Assembly (NCBI GenBank): GCA_964631565.1
Contig: CAZVYJ010000001.1
Coordinates: 12,705 to 76,704, forward strand
Reading direction: 5' to 3'
DNA from: an uncultured Planctomycetaceae bacterium
Lineage (GTDB): Bacteria; Planctomycetota; Phycisphaerae; SM23-33
Length of the DNA: 64,000 nucleotides
The translations under genes and the position numbers were made by a program. Of this stretch, positions 2,815 through 48,400 are shown piece by piece; position 1 is the first letter of the stretch, and each line of letters opens with the position of its first letter. Below the pieces are notes generated by a model, which was given only the letters and a program-made list of their open reading frames with translations, was not told the origin of the DNA and did no database searches.

Positions 2815-3777
2815 ATGAACAAACATATAGGATTGGTGATACTGGCTTCTCTGGTCATGTTGCTGCTGCTGGCTTATACGGTCACGTTCGTGGTCGATCA
2901 GCCCAGCGACATAATAGTGCTGACTACATTCGGGCAGGCCAGCGCAAGCGATGTATACGAGGGTGCGGAGGGGGCCGGCTGGCACTTGAAGTGGCCGTAC
3001 CCGATACAGCGTGCAGTGCGCCTGGAGAAACGCCGCATTCGCGTTTACGACCCCAACGACGCGGTCTACACGTCGGACGGGCAGGAGCTTGTCGTCAGCG
3101 CGTTCTGCATATGGGAAATAGACAAGCCGGTCGACTTCCTCTCCAACATCAAATCGGAAGCCGCCGCGTCTGAGCGCATCAGCAACCTGCTCCGCAGCAG
3201 CAAGAAGGAAATCTTCTCCAGCCGCAGCATGTCGCAGATCGTCAATACCGATCCGGACATGATGAAGCTTGGCGACATTGAGAACGAGATAGCGACCCGG
3301 CTGAAATCCTTCGTTGATGATGAAAAGTACGGCGTCAGGATCGTGCAGGTCGGAATCGAGAGAATGACGCTCACCACGGCGATAACCGAACAGGTTATCG
3401 AAACCATGAAGAAGGAACGCGAGCAGTTCGCCAAGACCTACGAGACCGAAGGCGATGCTGAGGCGACAGCGATAAAATCCCGCGCCGAGAGCGCCCGCAA
3501 GCGGATAATCGCGTTTGCCGAGCGCCACGCCAGGGACATCCGGGCCGAAGGCGAGCGGGCCGCCGCACGCGAATACAGCAAGTTCGAGGAATTCCCGCAG
3601 TTGAGCATGTTCCTGCGATACATAGACACGCTTAAGGCCGGGCTGAAAGACAACACGACGATTTTCCTGGACGGCTCGAAGATAGAGGCGATCGGCTGGT
3701 TCCGGGAAGGGGCGTCGCTGCCAAAAGGCCCGCCGATAAAGCTCGATGAAAAGGCCGGCGCCGGCGACAAGAAGTAG
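2815..3777 (+). CDS. HflC-like SPFH/band-7 membrane protein
   Basis: N-terminal TM anchor. VVDQPSDIIVLTTFGQ... and FLRYIDTLKAGLKDNTTIFL resemble the HflC C-terminal motif. 58-nt gap to the upstream gene, same strand. Confidence 0.7.
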   Translation: MNKHIGLVILASLVMLLLLAYTVTFVVDQPSDIIVLTTFGQASASDVYEGAEGAGWHLKWPYPIQRAVRLEKRRIRVYDPNDAVYTSDGQELVVSAFCIWEIDKPVDFLSNIKSEAAASERISNLLRSSKKEIFSSRSMSQIVNTDPDMMKLGDIENEIATRLKSFVDDEKYGVRIVQVGIERMTLTTAITEQVIETMKKEREQFAKTYETEGDAEATAIKSRAESARKRIIAFAERHARDIRAEGERAAAREYSKFEEFPQLSMFLRYIDTLKAGLKDNTTIFLDGSKIEAIGWFREGASLPKGPPIKLDEKAGAGDKK

Positions 3778-11593: not shown

Positions 11594-12946
11594 ATGAAAC
11601 GCAATGCGATTATGATGACGCTGCTTCTGGCCGCCCTTGCCGCCACGGCGCCGGCCGAGAACGTGGACCTGGTCACGCTGCCCAGCCGCGACACGGTGCA
11701 GCTGACCATCTACAACTCCGAGGACATCACGCTGGTCAAGGAGACACGCAACGTCACGCTGAAAAAAGGCTCCAACAAGATTCAATTTTCGTGGGCAGGC
11801 ACGCTTATCGATCCCACGAGCGTGGAATTCCGCCCGCTGACGCATGTTGATGAAATTGAATTGTCCGACACCGTATTCCCCGGCCAGAAGCCCCAGCACT
11901 TAATCTGGAATATCGACTCCAAGTTTGAGGGCGAAGTGAAGGTCGAGGTCAGCTACTTCACCAGCGGCCTGACATGGACGATGGACTACGTCGCCACCTG
12001 CGACCCGGCCGAGGAGAAGATGCAGCTTCGCGGCTATGTTCGCGTATTCAATAATTCCGGCGAGGAATACGAGAACGCCGAGGTGCATCTGATTGTCGGC
12101 ACGATAAACCTCGTCGAGAAGATAGCCGACCTCGCCCGCCGCCAGGGCATACAAGTACCACAGCGGGGCACGGCAGAGCATGAAAGGTTGAGAAAACAGG
12201 TCACATTGGAGGCTGCGGACAAGGCTGAAGAGGTTGCATTTGCGGCGCCTGCTGCCTCAATGCCGCCGAAGATAGTCAAGGAAGGCCTGAGCGAGTACTT
12301 CATGTTCTCCATAGAAGGCACGGAGACTATTCCCGACGGCTGGTCGAAACGCATGGAAGCCGTAAAGGCCGACGACGCCAAGTTCGAAATACTTTACCGC
12401 ATGCGGGACTTCCAGTACGGTCCGCGGCCGGTGCGATTCTTCATCTGGCGGAACGACGATGAGCACAAGCTCGGCGAGTCGCCGCTGCCTGACGGCCGCG
12501 TGCGCATCTTCCGCGAAAACGGCAAGGACGGCCTGAGTTTCCTCGGTGAGCAGCAGATCCGCTACGTGCCGATAAAGGCTGAGATTGAAGTCAACCTCGG
12601 CGCTGACGACCTTGTCGTCTACGAGACTCGCAAGATGTCCTCAGAGCGGCTGAACTTCCACTTCCACTGGGTTGATAATCACGAGTACGTGGACGGCTGG
12701 GACGAGAAATGCCAGTGGCTGGACACCGTCCGCAACTACCGCACCAAGCCGATAAAGTTCGAGCTTCGCCGCCGCTGGCTTGGCGATGTCGATTACACGT
12801 CTGAAGTCGCGACGACGCTGTTCGACTTCAACACGATAGAGACGACCATCGACATCGGCGCCCGCGACAAGAAAGACTATCCCTGCACGGTAATCACACA
12901 CTACGGCACCAACAAGAAGCAGGAACAGATAAGGATAGGCAAATGA
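11594..12946 (+). CDS. secreted hypothetical protein, paralog 2
   Basis: aaggagaaatgtc ATG. Signal peptide MKRNAIMMTLLLAALAATAPA. ~93% nt identity to paralog 3 apart from a replaced central cassette. Confidence 0.75.
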   Translation: MKRNAIMMTLLLAALAATAPAENVDLVTLPSRDTVQLTIYNSEDITLVKETRNVTLKKGSNKIQFSWAGTLIDPTSVEFRPLTHVDEIELSDTVFPGQKPQHLIWNIDSKFEGEVKVEVSYFTSGLTWTMDYVATCDPAEEKMQLRGYVRVFNNSGEEYENAEVHLIVGTINLVEKIADLARRQGIQVPQRGTAEHERLRKQVTLEAADKAEEVAFAAPAASMPPKIVKEGLSEYFMFSIEGTETIPDGWSKRMEAVKADDAKFEILYRMRDFQYGPRPVRFFIWRNDDEHKLGESPLPDGRVRIFRENGKDGLSFLGEQQIRYVPIKAEIEVNLGADDLVVYETRKMSSERLNFHFHWVDNHEYVDGWDEKCQWLDTVRNYRTKPIKFELRRRWLGDVDYTSEVATTLFDFNTIETTIDIGARDKKDYPCTVITHYGTNKKQEQIRIGK

Positions 12947-14304
12947 AAACGCAGATATGGATTACATCCGTGCTGCTCCTGACCGCCCTCGCCGCAGCGA
13001 CGCATGCCGCGAACGTGGACCTGGTCACGCTGCCCAGCCGCGACACGGTGCAACTGACCATCTACAACTCCGAGGATATTACGCTGGTCAAGGAGACACG
13101 CAATATCACGCTGAAGAAGGGCATGAATAAAATTCAGTTTTCATGGGCAGGCACGCTTATTGACCCGACGAGTGTGGAGTTCCGCCCGCTGACGCATGTT
13201 GATGAAATTGAATTGGCGGATACCGTATTTCCCGGCCAGAAGCCCCAGCACCTGATATGGAACATCGACTCGAAGTTTGAGGGTGAGGTGAAGGTTGAAG
13301 TGAGCTACTTCACCAGCGGCCTGACATGGACGATGGACTACGTCGCCACCTGCGACCCGGCCGAGGAGAAGATGCAGCTTCGCGGCTATGTTCGCGTGTT
13401 CAACAATTCCGGCGAGGAATACGAGAACGCCGAAGTCCGTCTTATTGTCGGCACGATAAATCTCGTCGAGAAGATAGCCGACCTCGCTCGCCGCAAGGGA
13501 ATACCCGTACCTCTTGAAGACAGTAAAGATTATAACGAAATGAAGAGAGGCGCCATAACAAAGAGCATCACCAGGTCAGAACGGGAATTCGATGGCGACA
13601 TGATTGAGGGAAAAAAGCCGCATGGGATAGTCAAGGAAGGCCTGAGCGAGTACTTCATGTTCTCGATAGAGGGCACGGAGACCATCCCCAACGGCTGGTC
13701 GAAACGCATGCAGGCGGTGAAGGCCGACGACGCGAAGTTCGACATACTTTACCGCATGCGTGACTTCCAGTACGGCCCGCGGCCGGTACGTTTCTTCATC
13801 TGGCGCAACGATGAGGAGCACAAGCTCGGCGAGTCGCCTCTGCCTGACGGCCGCGTACGCATCTTCCGCGAAAACGGCAAGGACGGCCTGAGCTTCCTCG
13901 GCGAGCAGCAGATACGCTACGTGCCGATAAAGGCTGAGATTGAAGTCAACCTCGGCGCTGACGACCTTGTCGTCTACGAGACCCGCAAGATGTCCTCTGA
14001 GCGGCTGAACTTCCACTTCCGATGGTCGGGCAGCAGGGAATGCGTGGACGGCTGGGACGAGAAATGCGCCTGGCTGGACACGGTCCGCAACTACCGCACC
14101 AAGCCGATAAGATTCGAGCTTCGCCGCCGCTGGCTTGGCGATGTCGATTACACGTCCGAAGTGACGACGACGCTGTTCGACTTCAACACGATTCAGACGA
14201 CCATCGACATCGGCGCCCGCGACAAGAAGGATTACCCCTGCACGGTGGTCACTCATTATGGAGTCAACAGCAAGCAGAACAGGATAAATCTCAGGAAAGA
14301 TTGA
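12943..14304 (+). CDS. secreted hypothetical protein, paralog 3
   Basis: ATGA overlap with the stop of paralog 2. Signal peptide [22 protein letters not shown]. Near-identical to paralog 2 outside 13494-13628. Confidence 0.75.
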
Positions 14305-36921: not shown

Positions 36922-36925
36922 TTCG

Positions 36926-37106
36926 TATGAAACAGTACCTGTTTCATATGAATTAGAGCAGGAGAACAGTTGAAAGTAGAGAGTAGAGAGCAGAAAAAGC
37001 AGTAGATGCCTATTTGGTGACTTATTTGTTTGTCACTGCCGCGGGTAGTTCTCCTGCGGCTTGCCCCACGTAGTCCCGCAGGGACGAAGACGGGTCTACT
37101 TTCTCC
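36926..37106 (+). repeat. intergenic repeat element copy A: palindromic hairpin + TTAGAGCAGGAGAACAGTTGAAAGTAGAGAGTAGAG core + distal GTTCTCCTGCGG ... TCTACTTTCT
   Basis: Perfect palindrome tatgaaacag-tac-ctgtttcata 5 nt after the stop, then the core. Downstream segments are reverse complements of GCAGGAGAAC and GAAAGTAGA in interleaved (pseudoknot-type) order. A second copy is at 41127-41265. Confidence 0.6.
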
Positions 37107-37119
37107 TTTCTGGTTTTCT

Positions 37120-37935
37120 TTACAGGGTTTCGTTCAGCGAGCCGCTGCGGAAACCTTCGAGGTCGAGCGTCACGTATGAATAGCCGAGCAGTTTGACGGC
37201 CGCGACGATATCGCCCCGCAGTTCGAAGGCCCGGTCTATCTGGTCAGGCGGAACTTCTATTCTCGCAATCTTCCCGTGGTCGCGAAGGCGGCACTGCTGA
37301 AACCCCATGTCGCGCAGAACGGCTTCCGCCTTTTCGATGCGGGCGAGTTTCTCGGGGGTAATCTCGTCGCCGTAGGGCACTCTGCTGGCCAGGCAGGCCG
37401 ACGACGGTTTGTCGGCTGTCTCCAGGCCCAGCATGCGTGAGGCGGCCCGGATGTCCTCCTTGCCGAGACCTGCTTCCAGAAGCGGCCGGCGAATGCCCAA
37501 TTCCTCTTCGGCCCGCAGGCCGGGGCGGTAGTCGCCCGTATCGTCGGCGTTCGCTCCGCTGACGACGACGGCCAGCCCGCGCTCGTCGGCAATCTGCTTC
37601 ATTTGCCCGAATATCGCCAGTTTGCAGTGATAGCACCTGTCGGGCGGATTGGAGGTGAATGTTCTGTCGCTCATTTCGTCCGTTTCGACTTCGAGAAGCT
37701 CGACCCCCAGCTTTTCGGCGATCCGGCGGGCGGTGCGGCGCTCGTGCTCCGGATGAATGGGCGAAACGCCGGTGACTGCAAGGACGTTGTCCGTTCCAAG
37801 CTCTTCTGCGGCGAGCCTGAGCAGCAGCGTGCTGTCCACGCCGCCGGAAAATCCGACAACCGCACTGCCAAGCTTGCGGATGATTTCGCGGCAGGCGGCG
37901 ATGCGATCATTCGGATTATCTTTTTTGTCGGTCAT
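37120..37935 (-). CDS. larE: ATP-dependent sacrificial sulfur transferase LarE (PP-loop ATPase)
   Basis: PP-loop VVGFSGGVDSTLLL, DYRPGLRA, RCYHCK, and C-terminal YVTLDLEGFRSGSLNE matching the LarE family. Confidence 0.8.
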   Translation of the reverse strand: MTDKKDNPNDRIAACREIIRKLGSAVVGFSGGVDSTLLLRLAAEELGTDNVLAVTGVSPIHPEHERRTARRIAEKLGVELLEVETDEMSDRTFTSNPPDRCYHCKLAIFGQMKQIADERGLAVVVSGANADDTGDYRPGLRAEEELGIRRPLLEAGLGKEDIRAASRMLGLETADKPSSACLASRVPYGDEITPEKLARIEKAEAVLRDMGFQQCRLRDHGKIARIEVPPDQIDRAFELRGDIVAAVKLLGYSYVTLDLEGFRSGSLNETL

Positions 37936-41126: not shown

Positions 41127-41265
41127 GCTGACAGCAACAGTTTCTGTTGCTGACAGCTTAGAGCAGGAGAGAGTTGAAAGTAGAGAGTAGAAAATACTCC
41201 GGATGCACAATTTGGCGAATTGCTTTGGTTTGGAATACTTCGTTCTCCTGCGGTCTACTTTCTAC
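41127..41265 (+). repeat. intergenic repeat element copy B (same family as 36926-37106)
   Basis: Hairpin gctgacagcaacag-ttt-ctgttgctgacagc directly after the accC stop. Core ttagagcaggagagagttgaaagtagagagtaga, then gttctcctgcgg-tctactttct. Lies in the 5-prime leader of the PFK gene. Confidence 0.6.
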
Positions 41266-41348
41266 TATCTATAATTGCGATGTTGCGTGTATCGAATGTT
41301 GTTGTGAGCAAATTCTTGTTGAGATTTCAGAACTACGTAGAAACGGAG

Positions 41349-42578
41349 ATGCCAGAAATGCCGGATTCAGCAAAAGGCAATGCGGTTATAGGACAGTCAG
41401 GCGGCCCGACGGCGGTCATCAACCAGTCGCTCGTCGGCGTCATTGAAGCCGTTCAGAAGAGCAGCCGGATAGACAGACTTCTGGGCGCTCGCAACGGCGT
41501 GCGAGGAATAGTCGAGGAACGCTTCACCGACCTCAAGGGCCTCGGCGCCGACCTGCTTGAGAAGGTCGCGCAGACGCCAGCGGCGGCGCTTGGCTCCAGC
41601 CGCGACAAGCCGGACGAAGCATACTGCGAGAAAATCCTCAAGGTTTTCGAGAAGAACAACGTCCGTTATTTCTTCTATATCGGCGGCAACGACTCGGCCG
41701 ACACGGCCCGCATCGTGAACGAGATGGCCAACCGGAGCGGCTACGAGCTTCGGACGTTCCACATTCCCAAGACGATCGACAACGACCTGCGCGTTACCGA
41801 CCACTGCCCGGGCTATGGCTCGGCGGCGAAATTCGTCGCGTCGGCGTTCATGGGCGACGACCGCGACTCGGCCTCGCTGCCCGGAATCAAGATTAACATC
41901 GTCATGGGCCGCCACGCAGGCTGGCTCACTGCGGCTGCAACGCTCGGGCGCTGCGACGAAACCGACGGTCCTCATCTGGTTTACGTGCCGGAGAAGCCGT
42001 TTGTGACATCGAAATTCCTTGAAGACGTCAAGGAAGTCTACGGCCGCCTCGGCCGCTGCCAGATTGCCGTCTCCGAAGGCGTCGAGGACGAGACAGGCAT
42101 TTCGGTCGCCGCGTCGCTGGCTGAGCGGCTCGGCCACCGCGTCGAGCGCGACAGCCACGGCAACGTCCAGCTTTCGGGTTCGGGCATGCTGGGCGACTTC
42201 CTGGCCGACTACCTCAAGAAGGAAATGAAGCAGAGCTACAAGTCGCTTCGCGTCCGGGCCGATACGTTCGGCTATCTCCAGAGGAGTTTCGCCGGGTACG
42301 CATCATCGGTTGACCAGGCCGAGGCTCGCCTTGCCGGCCGCACCGCCGTCAAGTACGCCACTTCCGGCGATATCGACGGCTCGGTGGCCTTCAGGCGGAC
42401 GGGCGAGGGCGACAAGTACGGCATCGAGTGTTTCCGGGCAGAACTGAAAGACGTCGCCCGCGAGACCAAGCACCTGCCGGCCGAGTTCATAAACAAGGAT
42501 CACAACGGCATAACCGAGGCGTTCCGCAAATACGCCATGCCGCTGGTCGGCGGCCTGCCGGTTATCGGCAAACTGTAA
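41349..42578 (+). CDS. pfp: 6-phosphofructokinase, PPi-dependent-type signatures (PKTIDND)
   Basis: Start MPEMPDSAKGNAVIGQSGGPTAVIN (ORF-track start 41220 lies inside the repeat element). FYIGGNDSADTA replaces GGDGS. HIPKTIDNDL has the Lys typical of PPi-PFKs. MGRHAGWL. Confidence 0.75.
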   Translation: MPEMPDSAKGNAVIGQSGGPTAVINQSLVGVIEAVQKSSRIDRLLGARNGVRGIVEERFTDLKGLGADLLEKVAQTPAAALGSSRDKPDEAYCEKILKVFEKNNVRYFFYIGGNDSADTARIVNEMANRSGYELRTFHIPKTIDNDLRVTDHCPGYGSAAKFVASAFMGDDRDSASLPGIKINIVMGRHAGWLTAAATLGRCDETDGPHLVYVPEKPFVTSKFLEDVKEVYGRLGRCQIAVSEGVEDETGISVAASLAERLGHRVERDSHGNVQLSGSGMLGDFLADYLKKEMKQSYKSLRVRADTFGYLQRSFAGYASSVDQAEARLAGRTAVKYATSGDIDGSVAFRRTGEGDKYGIECFRAELKDVARETKHLPAEFINKDHNGITEAFRKYAMPLVGGLPVIGKL

Positions 42579-48253: not shown

Positions 48254-48327
48254 GGCAGGGGGATTGTAACTGACTTTCGGCGCAAAAGAAACGGCGGCCT
48301 GCATTCGTTCATGAATACAGGCCGCCA

Positions 48328-48400
48328 TGACCCCAAGGGGAATCGAACCCCTGTTACCGGGATGAAAACCCGATGTCCTAGTCCGCTAGACGATGGGGCC
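48328..48400 (-). tRNA. tRNA-Glu (anticodon UUC)
   Basis: Minus strand reads GGCCCCATCGTCTAGCGGACTAGGACATCGGGTTTTCATCCCGGTAACAGGGGTTCGATTCCCCTTGGGGTCA: 7-bp acceptor stem, D-arm, anticodon loop TTTTCAT, T-arm GGTTCGATTCC. No encoded CCA. Confidence 0.85.

Follow-up and report, generated by a model that had tools for sequence, protein, structure and literature searches.

Two intergenic regions in a 64,000-nt stretch of DNA from an uncultured planctomycete (the whole stretch is called the window here) carry the same element, in which two distal segments are complementary to a conserved core in crossed order. A preliminary description of these regions, copies A and B, read this order as the topology of an H-type pseudoknot and named a small RNA, a riboregulator and a REP/MITE-like repeat as candidates. 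We asked which of these the element is, and whether its complementarity reflects a folded RNA. To our knowledge, almost no regulatory RNAs or repeat families have been described in Planctomycetota.

Two copies of one modular element

Copies A and B share one architecture (Table 1): a strong stem-loop, a purine-rich box (R-module) with sub-boxes A and B, a variable spacer, and a pyrimidine-rich box (Y-module) in which A' and B' complement A and B. The two are homologous, as had been proposed, and every feature of the preliminary description is present in its place, including the hairpin right after the stop codon in both copies and the near-identical core, in which 34 of 35 positions agree and one 1-nt indel occurs. 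The 19-mer GTTGAAAGTAGAGAGTAGA is found in the 64-kb window in copies A and B only, with 0.01 occurrences expected, and neither pattern nor profile searches of the window found a third copy. The crossed complementarity is real as well: GTTCTCCTGCGG and TCTACTTTCT downstream match GCAGGAGAAC and GAAAGTAGA in the core in the order A-B...A'-B', and when the downstream sequence was shuffled, the R-module met two perfect complements, each 9 nt or longer, in 1 of 20,000 trials, for copy A and for the related locus L029 alike. Chance is excluded as the source of both copies' features.

Two details had to be corrected. Box A' of copy A complements sub-box A perfectly over 10 nt (duplex energy -16.8 kcal/mol), but the A:A' helix of copy B, also given as 10 bp, consists of 8 Watson-Crick pairs and one G-U. 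The spacers are variable, but they are not unrelated: they are weakly similar, with GATGC.C.ATTTGG.GA common to both.

Table 1. Parts of copies A and B and their positions in the window
Feature	Positions	Strand	Remarks
Copy A, whole element	36922-37119	+	
Copy A, upstream stop codon TAA	36919-36921		gene for LptD_N-domain protein, 1079 aa
Copy A, stem-loop	36922..36952	+	directly 3' of stop codon; 14 bp, loop UAC
Copy A, hairpin arms	36926-36935 / 36939-36948		extendable to 14 bp, 36922-36935 : 36939-36952
Copy A, purine-rich R-module	36953..37006	+	
Copy A, conserved core	36953-36987	+	TTAGAGCAGGAGAACAGTTGAAAGTAGAGAGTAGA
Copy A, sub-box A	36958-36967	+	GCAGGAGAAC
Copy A, sub-box B	36972-36980	+	GAAAGTAGA
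Copy A, continuation after core	within 36953..37006	+	GAGCAGAAAAAGCAGTAGA; degenerate, A-like/B-like, part of R-module
Copy A, variable spacer	37007..37047	+	contains local GTGAC/GTCAC hairpin
Copy A, box A' plus GG	37048..37059	+	GTTCTCCTGCGG
Copy A, extra hairpin	37053-37082		CCTGCGG-16 nt-CCGCAGG
Copy A, insert between A'GG and B'	37060..37094	+	about 34 nt, copy A only
Copy A, distal segment	37095-37104	+	TCTACTTTCT
Copy A, box B'	37095-37103	+	TCTACTTTC; duplex energy -9.7 kcal/mol
Copy A, box B' plus pyrimidine-rich tail	37095..37119	+	tail reaches stop codon of convergent gene
Stop codon at end of copy A	37120-37122		convergent NAD-synthase-like gene
Copy B, whole element	41127-41266	+	
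Copy B, upstream stop codon TAA	41124-41126		biotin carboxylase gene accC
Copy B, stem-loop	41127..41157	+	directly 3' of accC stop codon; 14 bp with one mismatch, loop UUU
Copy B, hairpin arms	41127-41140 / 41144-41157		
Copy B, R-module / core	41158..41191	+	
Copy B, sub-box A	41163-41171	+	GCAGGAGAG
Copy B, sub-box B	41176-41184	+	extended form AGTAGAGAGTAGA at 41179-41191
Copy B, variable spacer	41192..41241	+	
Copy B, box A' plus GG	41242-41253	+	GTTCTCCTGCGG
Copy B, distal segment	41254-41263	+	TCTACTTTCT
Copy B, pyrimidine-rich Y-module	41242..41266	+	A' 41242-41251, GG, B' 41254-41262 (extended to 41266)

Copy A lies between convergent genes, for the LptD_N-domain and NAD-synthase-like proteins, as described. 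Its insert carries a small hairpin, GTCCC-GCA-GGGAC, followed by GAAG. The additional CCTGCGG hairpin is also there, and since its 5' arm overlaps A', the two pairings are mutually exclusive. The insert word TAGTCCCnnAGGGACGAAG recurs in the accC-pfk spacer (3231-3245) of L026, a relative at 89% identity whose spacer is otherwise unrelated; this hairpin word may be a second, tiny mobile or recombining module.

Copy B lies 167 nt before the phosphofructokinase start at 41358, a start that agrees with an exact database protein match. Just 3' of its pyrimidine box, 83 nt before the pfk start, a perfect TATAAT hexamer occurs at 41270-41275; no -35 partner was found for it, and a pfk promoter at this position is possible but unsupported.

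The element has no match in Rfam

Rfam 15 at the gathering threshold reported two tRNAs only in the window, and a search of both sites at E up to 10 gave noise only (at most 14.7 bits); neither setting matched a known family. Nine related loci likewise yielded tRNAs only. Viral contigs contained zero matches to the 19-mer and 8 to the Y-box pattern, all of them chance matches in low-GC coding sequence, and a BLAST search of a plasmid collection gave no match. No description of the element was found in Rfam or in a limited literature search (exact sequence, Planctomycetes motifs).

The sole planctomycete motif found in this way was Rhodopirellula-1, an unrelated attC-like hairpin. Integron attC sites have a bulged hairpin whose base carries the core sites RYYYAAC ... 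GTTRRRY. We rejected identity with attC or Rhodopirellula-1, as the published alignment of the latter (Weinberg 2010, supplement PMC2864571) reads AACAA..GAU..GAAC...GUUAUC..GUU and is unlike the R or Y boxes. A promoter was rejected too: no sigma-70-type match was found in or around copies A and B, and no copy offers a -10 partner 16-18 nt away from the TTGAAA of the core, if this is taken as a -35 element. We also rejected a small protein read from AGGAG-N4-5-TTG (frame starting MKVESR), which would have 11, 90, 15 or 22 codons depending on the copy; in diverged copies TTG has become TGG. A boxA/nut-like site (TGCTCTAA plus a hairpin) is present on the antisense strand only and was rejected for its wrong orientation.

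Both copies are absent from the corresponding sites of relatives

The gene string pepP-accB-accC-pfk is conserved in relatives, and its accC-pfk spacer, 231 nt long in the window, measures 58 nt in L025, 75 nt in L059, 38 nt in L060 and 43 nt in L061; the element is absent from all four spacers. At the site of copy A, the convergent spacer is 198 nt in the window, 6 nt in L025 and 8 nt in L059. The PFK of L025 is 89% identical to that of the window; L026, also at 89% identity, has a different accC-pfk spacer of 195 nt. Public contigs match the window PFK at 100%, and its homologues at 72-75% identity belong to named Phycisphaerae or Planctomycetota, which places the window in a planctomycete of the class Phycisphaerae. 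Since the closest relatives have no element at either site, this comparison shows copies A and B to be lineage-specific insertions, gained in this lineage. L059 has a different purine/pyrimidine element between frr and tRNA-Lys, where the equivalent spacer of the window is short and empty. From such presence and absence at single sites, the element is seen to be gained and lost over a short evolutionary scale, and it does not constitute a conserved pfk leader.

Copy B had been placed in the 5' leader of the PPi-PFK gene. Its position before pfk stands, but with four relatives lacking the element there is no conserved leader. Among the three candidates of the preliminary description, the evidence favours the repeat; the element is not a locus-specific riboregulator. 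The readings as a 6S RNA, a riboswitch or a pfk attenuator were rejected because the element is missing from the pfk site in relatives.

With MITEs the element shares presence/absence polymorphism at orthologous sites. It has no terminal inverted repeats: the 3' box reads A'-GG-B' and not B'-A', and the ends are not mirror-inverted. No target-site duplication is visible when the filled sites of the window are set against the empty sites of L025, whose non-coding flanks have diverged from those of the window beyond alignment. Neither a transposase nor an integrase was found near the copies.

A family spread across Planctomycetota

The preliminary description allowed for the outcome that only these two copies exist; the family is, on the contrary, widespread in Planctomycetota. 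An exact scan for the 19-mer through one genome per species returned 23 loci, about 14 of which are in Planctomycetota of several orders (Pirellula, Pirellulaceae, Schlesneria, Phycisphaerales). About 4 chance matches are expected in that collection by our own estimate, a number that the non-planctomycete matches fit. The sequence just 5' of the 19-mer is purine-rich and differs among loci; hence the loci are not one recently transferred DNA segment. In metagenomes, the gapped-core pattern met mostly chance coding matches in low-GC gut or marine contigs, and the true relatives that it recovered were L029 (=L038), L045 and L041. L029/L038 and L045 carry a 33-nt R-module 97% identical to that of the window, and the homologues of their uxaC proteins are from named Phycisphaerae or Sedimentisphaerales, which puts them in the same class as the window.

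A profile search of 320 kb, relatives included, revealed additional copies that have diverged; in Pirellula, an 8-kb locus often holds two. By profile, no copy was detected elsewhere in the window, in same-sample contigs or in close relatives (about 55 kb together), nor was one found in about 5 kb of extra sequence of this genome beyond the window. Copy number looks modest, at 2 per 64 kb in the window.

In Pirellula (L002, L007, L009, L013, L022, L023) the 19-mer is part of a dispersed repeat (about 170 nt); one MAG has four exact copies, and there are diverged second copies, with two per 8 kb in several loci. Several of these copies stand about 150-200 nt 3' of GGTTCGAATCCTACCGCCTC, which resembles a tRNA 3' fragment and in which ARAGORN calls no tRNA; it may be an integration scar. 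In a Pirellulaceae MAG (L003, 4623-4700), the stretch between leuA and a tRNA-Pro that faces it contains the core heptamer GAGTAGA about 10 times in tandem, a microsatellite-like expansion that suggests replication slippage acting on the repeat words. Elsewhere in the window, at 11594-14304, two paralogous genes for proteins of 450 and 453 aa stand in tandem with a period of 1355 nt; their DNA is 88-91% identical, both match DUF4139 weakly, and they look like a recent tandem duplication.

A conserved purine box behind a stem-loop of free sequence

The consensus of the purine box is (T)AGAGCAGGAGA-R-AGTTGAAAGTAGAGAGTAGA(GCAG). It is made of two periodic words, A (GCAGGAGAA) and B (GAAAGTAGA / GAGAGTAGA), and it is almost free of C and without internal inverted repeat. 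In about 10 independent loci (copies A and B, L029, L045, L015a, L015b, L016, L008, L041b and L003) the R-module begins 0-25 nt after a stem-loop with 8-24 bp, and the sequences of these stem-loops are unrelated. At the tRNA-Pro locus, which is orthologous in L029 and L045, the stem has undergone four compensatory pair changes and the purine box is identical.

The R-module also occurs without a Y-module, in L004, L006, L008, L014, L016, L045/L065 and the Pirellula family. L045/L065 contains two hairpin-plus-R units in tandem; set against the orthologous L029/L038, it has kept the tRNA, the hairpin and the R-module and lacks the Y-module, which is thus dispensable. Where it is present, the pyrimidine box always lies 3' of the purine box, so that both strands are purine-rich first. 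Reverse-complementing the purine arm of L012, GTAGAGAGTAGA-CC-GCAGGAGAA, gives a sequence with 96% identity to the Y-module of copy B (TTCTCCTGCGGTCTACTTTCTACT), so that the pyrimidine box is an inverted copy of a circularly permuted R-unit (B-CC-A). A periodic A-B-A-B unit together with an inverted copy half a period out of register gives rise to the crossed complementarity. The crossed arrangement is found in copies A and B, L029, L012 and L015a; L010 and L015b form nested hairpins, and so does L012 as an alternative fold.

In L038/L029, two small genes lie between the purine box and the conserved downstream segment (L038, 5300-6135). By eye, their products look like a four-helix bundle ('23S rRNA intervening-sequence protein'-like) and a pentapeptide-repeat-like protein. 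The L045/L065 allele has a second purine box in their place, in the manner of a cassette-like insertion or deletion.

Crossed helices and the pseudoknot question

The interleaved order of the helices (A, B, A', B') is that of an H-type pseudoknot. In copies A and B and in L029, A:A' spans 9-11 bp and B:B' 9-13 bp; the linkers measure 4 nt from A to B, and 2 nt (copy B) or 0-1 nt (L015a) from A' to B'. Judged from A-form helix geometry, loops of this length do not span the groove of stems of 9-13 bp. Because the linkers are too short for such stems, a classical coaxial H-type pseudoknot would be ruled out, and the options left would be two alternative conformers or a side-by-side arrangement. 

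A:A' contributes -14 to -18 and B:B' -10 to -17 kcal/mol, together -25 to -35 kcal/mol, and nested alternative folds are of comparable energy (-30.1 kcal/mol for the nested minimum-free-energy fold of copy B). The plus strands of both copies fold better than shuffled sequences (z = -4.9 for copy A, -4.3 for copy B), and the better-folding strand is inconsistent among loci: plus in copy A and L012, minus in L029, equal in copy B and L015a.

Few copies are comparable enough to look for covariation. Between copy A (GCAGGAGAAC/GTTCTCCTGC) and L029 (GCAGGAGAAAG/CTTTCTCCTGC) there is one double change in A:A', from C:G to A:T; L029 has gained one further G:C pair, and B:B' is invariant. A single double change is equally expected if the pyrimidine box was copied from the lineage's own unit. 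The loss of the Y box from L045/L065, which keeps the hairpin and the purine box, speaks against an essential role for the pairing. The crossed complementarity is genuine, and a staggered inverted periodic repeat would account for it better than a proven RNA pseudoknot.

tRNA genes, terminators and transcription

Six independent loci are flanked by a tRNA gene: the element lies 3' of tRNA-Pro (in two lineages), tRNA-Val and tRNA-Asp, and 5' of tRNA-Leu and tRNA-Lys. We regard this as a strong enrichment, given our rough estimate that tRNA genes border only a few percent of all intergenic regions. The other contexts are intercistronic or convergent (groEL-dnaJ; a secretion ATPase gene and its partner gene; leuA facing a tRNA). 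On the minus strand of L015 (820-1270), the 3' end of tRNA-Asp (about 25 nt) and the hairpin that follows it are duplicated about 300 nt downstream. This duplication resembles the att sites left by an integrated element, and a second purine/pyrimidine element follows the duplicate.

In L012, a TTGACA-17 nt-TAACAT promoter lies directly upstream of the element and tRNA-Leu directly downstream; hence, reading from this layout, the element is almost certainly transcribed there. Copy B, as comparison with relatives suggests, lies inside one transcription unit. Intrinsic terminators combine a GC-rich stem with a U-tract; the stem-loops of copies A and B have no U-tract, and a terminator scan was blank at both sites. 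Both tRNA genes of the window are followed by a GC-rich hairpin plus T-run (48270-48330 and 55100-55155, minus strand). The genome thus uses canonical intrinsic terminators, unlike the hairpins of the element.

What the element is

On present evidence, the element is best described as a new repeat family rather than as a demonstrated new RNA fold. This novel family is well supported, and it has a signature of its own: the stem-loop varies freely in sequence, the purine box is conserved, and the inverted partner, staggered in register, is optional. With moderate confidence, we favour a modular interspersed intergenic repeat of the REP/BIME or BOX type, probably transcribed with its neighbours and folding as a 3'-end or intercistronic RNA structure. 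The unit would place a stem-loop, free in sequence, where a gene or tRNA ends, with the conserved purine-rich box at once after it. Transcribed together with the neighbouring genes, presumably by read-through, its R and Y boxes would pair on the RNA, as an imperfect nested duplex or as two alternative helices of 9-13 bp, and the stem-loop and the R/Y pairing together would form a structured 3'-end or intercistronic block. Stabilisation of the upstream transcript, processing and insulation are roles proposed for REP/BIME and BOX elements. The block could likewise lend stability to the transcript upstream of it or serve as a site of processing or insulation, and some copying or recombination process would have spread it, leaving its presence patchy. 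Several observations weigh against the repeat as we picture it: the better-folding strand is inconsistent; the hairpins have no U-tracts and do not score as intrinsic terminators; copy number looks modest; and we saw no target duplication, no terminal inverted repeats and no transposase. Moreover, identity over 19-33 nt across orders is unusual for REP-like repeats and may reflect a conserved binding partner instead.

An element that acts purely as DNA, either a selfish mobile or recombining MITE-like repeat or a set of sites for a DNA-binding protein (nucleoid protein, gyrase, recombinase) at the ends of transcription units, seems to us rather unlikely, for all that it would explain. tRNA genes are classic integration sites. 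Such an element fits the enrichment beside them, as well as the varying presence among close relatives, the modules in both orientations or in tandem (L045), the 10-copy GAGTAGA expansion in L003, the small extra module that copy A has in common with L026, and the Pirellula copies inside a dispersed repeat of about 170 nt, two per 8 kb in several loci. It does not fit arms that are permuted and not mirror-inverted, and so form no terminal inverted repeats, nor the lack of a visible target duplication and of a transposase or integrase nearby; the A-B...A'-B' layout is without the two-fold symmetry expected of sites for dimeric DNA-binding proteins, and the compensatory changes between L029 and L045 in the variable hairpin point to selection on a folded single strand. 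We consider unlikely a genuine structured non-coding RNA, small RNA or cis-regulator, in which A:A' and B:B' would coexist, side by side, in a non-classical pseudoknot and selection would act on the crossed topology itself. Perfect crossed complements do recur in copies A and B, L029, L012 and L015a, the last with a different box A (ATTAGAAAGTTG / CAACTTTCTAAT) and the same order and short linkers; the pattern arises by chance in at most 1 of 20,000 shuffles, the summed helices rival the nested fold of copy B in energy, and copy A and L029 differ by the double change and the extra G:C pair. Against these stand linkers of 4 nt and 0-2 nt, which on A-form dimensions would not cross stems of 9-13 bp coaxially, the lack of a Y-module in L045/L065 and many other loci, the nested arrangements of L012, L010 and L015b, and the absence of the element from orthologous sites in relatives. 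If the Y box is the lineage's own R-unit inverted, complementarity is automatic and the double change is not independent evidence.

The position of the element, always at the ends of genes or tRNAs, is also what an unconventional terminator or insulator for busy transcription units would show, possibly bidirectional or factor-dependent, in which the hairpin and the purine/pyrimidine duplex stop RNA polymerase without a U-tract. Either strand is purine-rich and then pyrimidine-rich, the polarity of a bidirectional terminator; copy A, L003 and L045 lie between convergent genes, and other copies lie 3' of groEL (L016), frr (L059), accC (copy B) and tRNAs. We nonetheless hold this to be highly improbable: the window ends both its tRNAs with an ordinary GC-rich hairpin plus T-run that the elements do not resemble, the elements of L012 and L059 stand between a promoter or upstream gene and a tRNA that still needs to be transcribed, and in relatives, spacers of 6-75 nt suffice at these positions. 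A bolder proposal, very unlikely in our judgement, is that the stem-loop and purine-rich box are a phylum-wide RNA signal read by a pyrimidine-rich guide, in cis (the Y box, as a side-by-side double helix) or in trans (a Y-box RNA made at another locus), and that under the direction of this signal mRNAs and tRNA precursors would be processed or given their 3' ends; if true, it would be a bacterial counterpart of the stem-loop plus purine-rich downstream element that is recognised by an antisense RNA. A box of 19-33 nt identical across orders, behind gene-terminal stem-loops and enriched at tRNAs, would imply either a conserved binding partner, protein or RNA, or a new way of copying short DNA modules, and either outcome would aid the annotation of Planctomycetota genomes and the understanding of how transcription units are delimited.

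Comparison with known systems

The order 5'-A, 5'-B, 3'-A', 3'-B' is that of H-type pseudoknots and of HDV-like ribozymes with their nested double pseudoknot, and an optional hairpin between A' and B' is a further likeness to the latter. The element differs from both in linkers too short for its stems and in a partner box that is dispensable in relatives. The HDV-like core (crossed helices P1/P2, P3-L3, P1.1 and J4/2) was not recognised, in keeping with the lack of an Rfam match; B and A' are 50-67 nt apart, and in copy B a mere GG separates A' from B', too little to accommodate a catalytic junction.

REP/BIME elements are enterobacterial repetitive extragenic palindromes arranged in mosaics, with an associated RAYT transposase and hundreds of copies per genome. 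As in these, short extragenic repeats of direct and inverted modules lie here after genes and within operons, in both orientations, their presence varies among relatives, and stabilisation of transcript 3' ends or topological insulation can be proposed. The unit of REP/BIME is an imperfect palindrome (about 35 nt). The R-module is none: it is rich in purines, stands behind a hairpin of free sequence and has no sequence similarity to REP; the arms have a strict purine-then-pyrimidine polarity and a staggered register, and the window shows no RAYT transposase and 2 copies per 64 kb.

The BOX repeats of Streptococcus pneumoniae are modular (boxA-boxB-boxC) and pair in nested order. They resemble the planctomycete element in their intergenic modules, partly complementary 5' and 3' parts, variable middle and predicted folding as RNA. 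Phylum and sequence differ, the planctomycete boxes pair crossed and not nested, and the 5' box often stands alone, tied to the preceding stem-loop and to tRNA flanks. Finally, the STRR heptamers of heterocystous cyanobacteria are, like the 10 tandem copies of GAGTAGA in L003, intergenic heptamer-periodic words, but the copies in the window are not tandem: in each, a hairpin and a complementary partner box accompany a fixed core of 33 nt.
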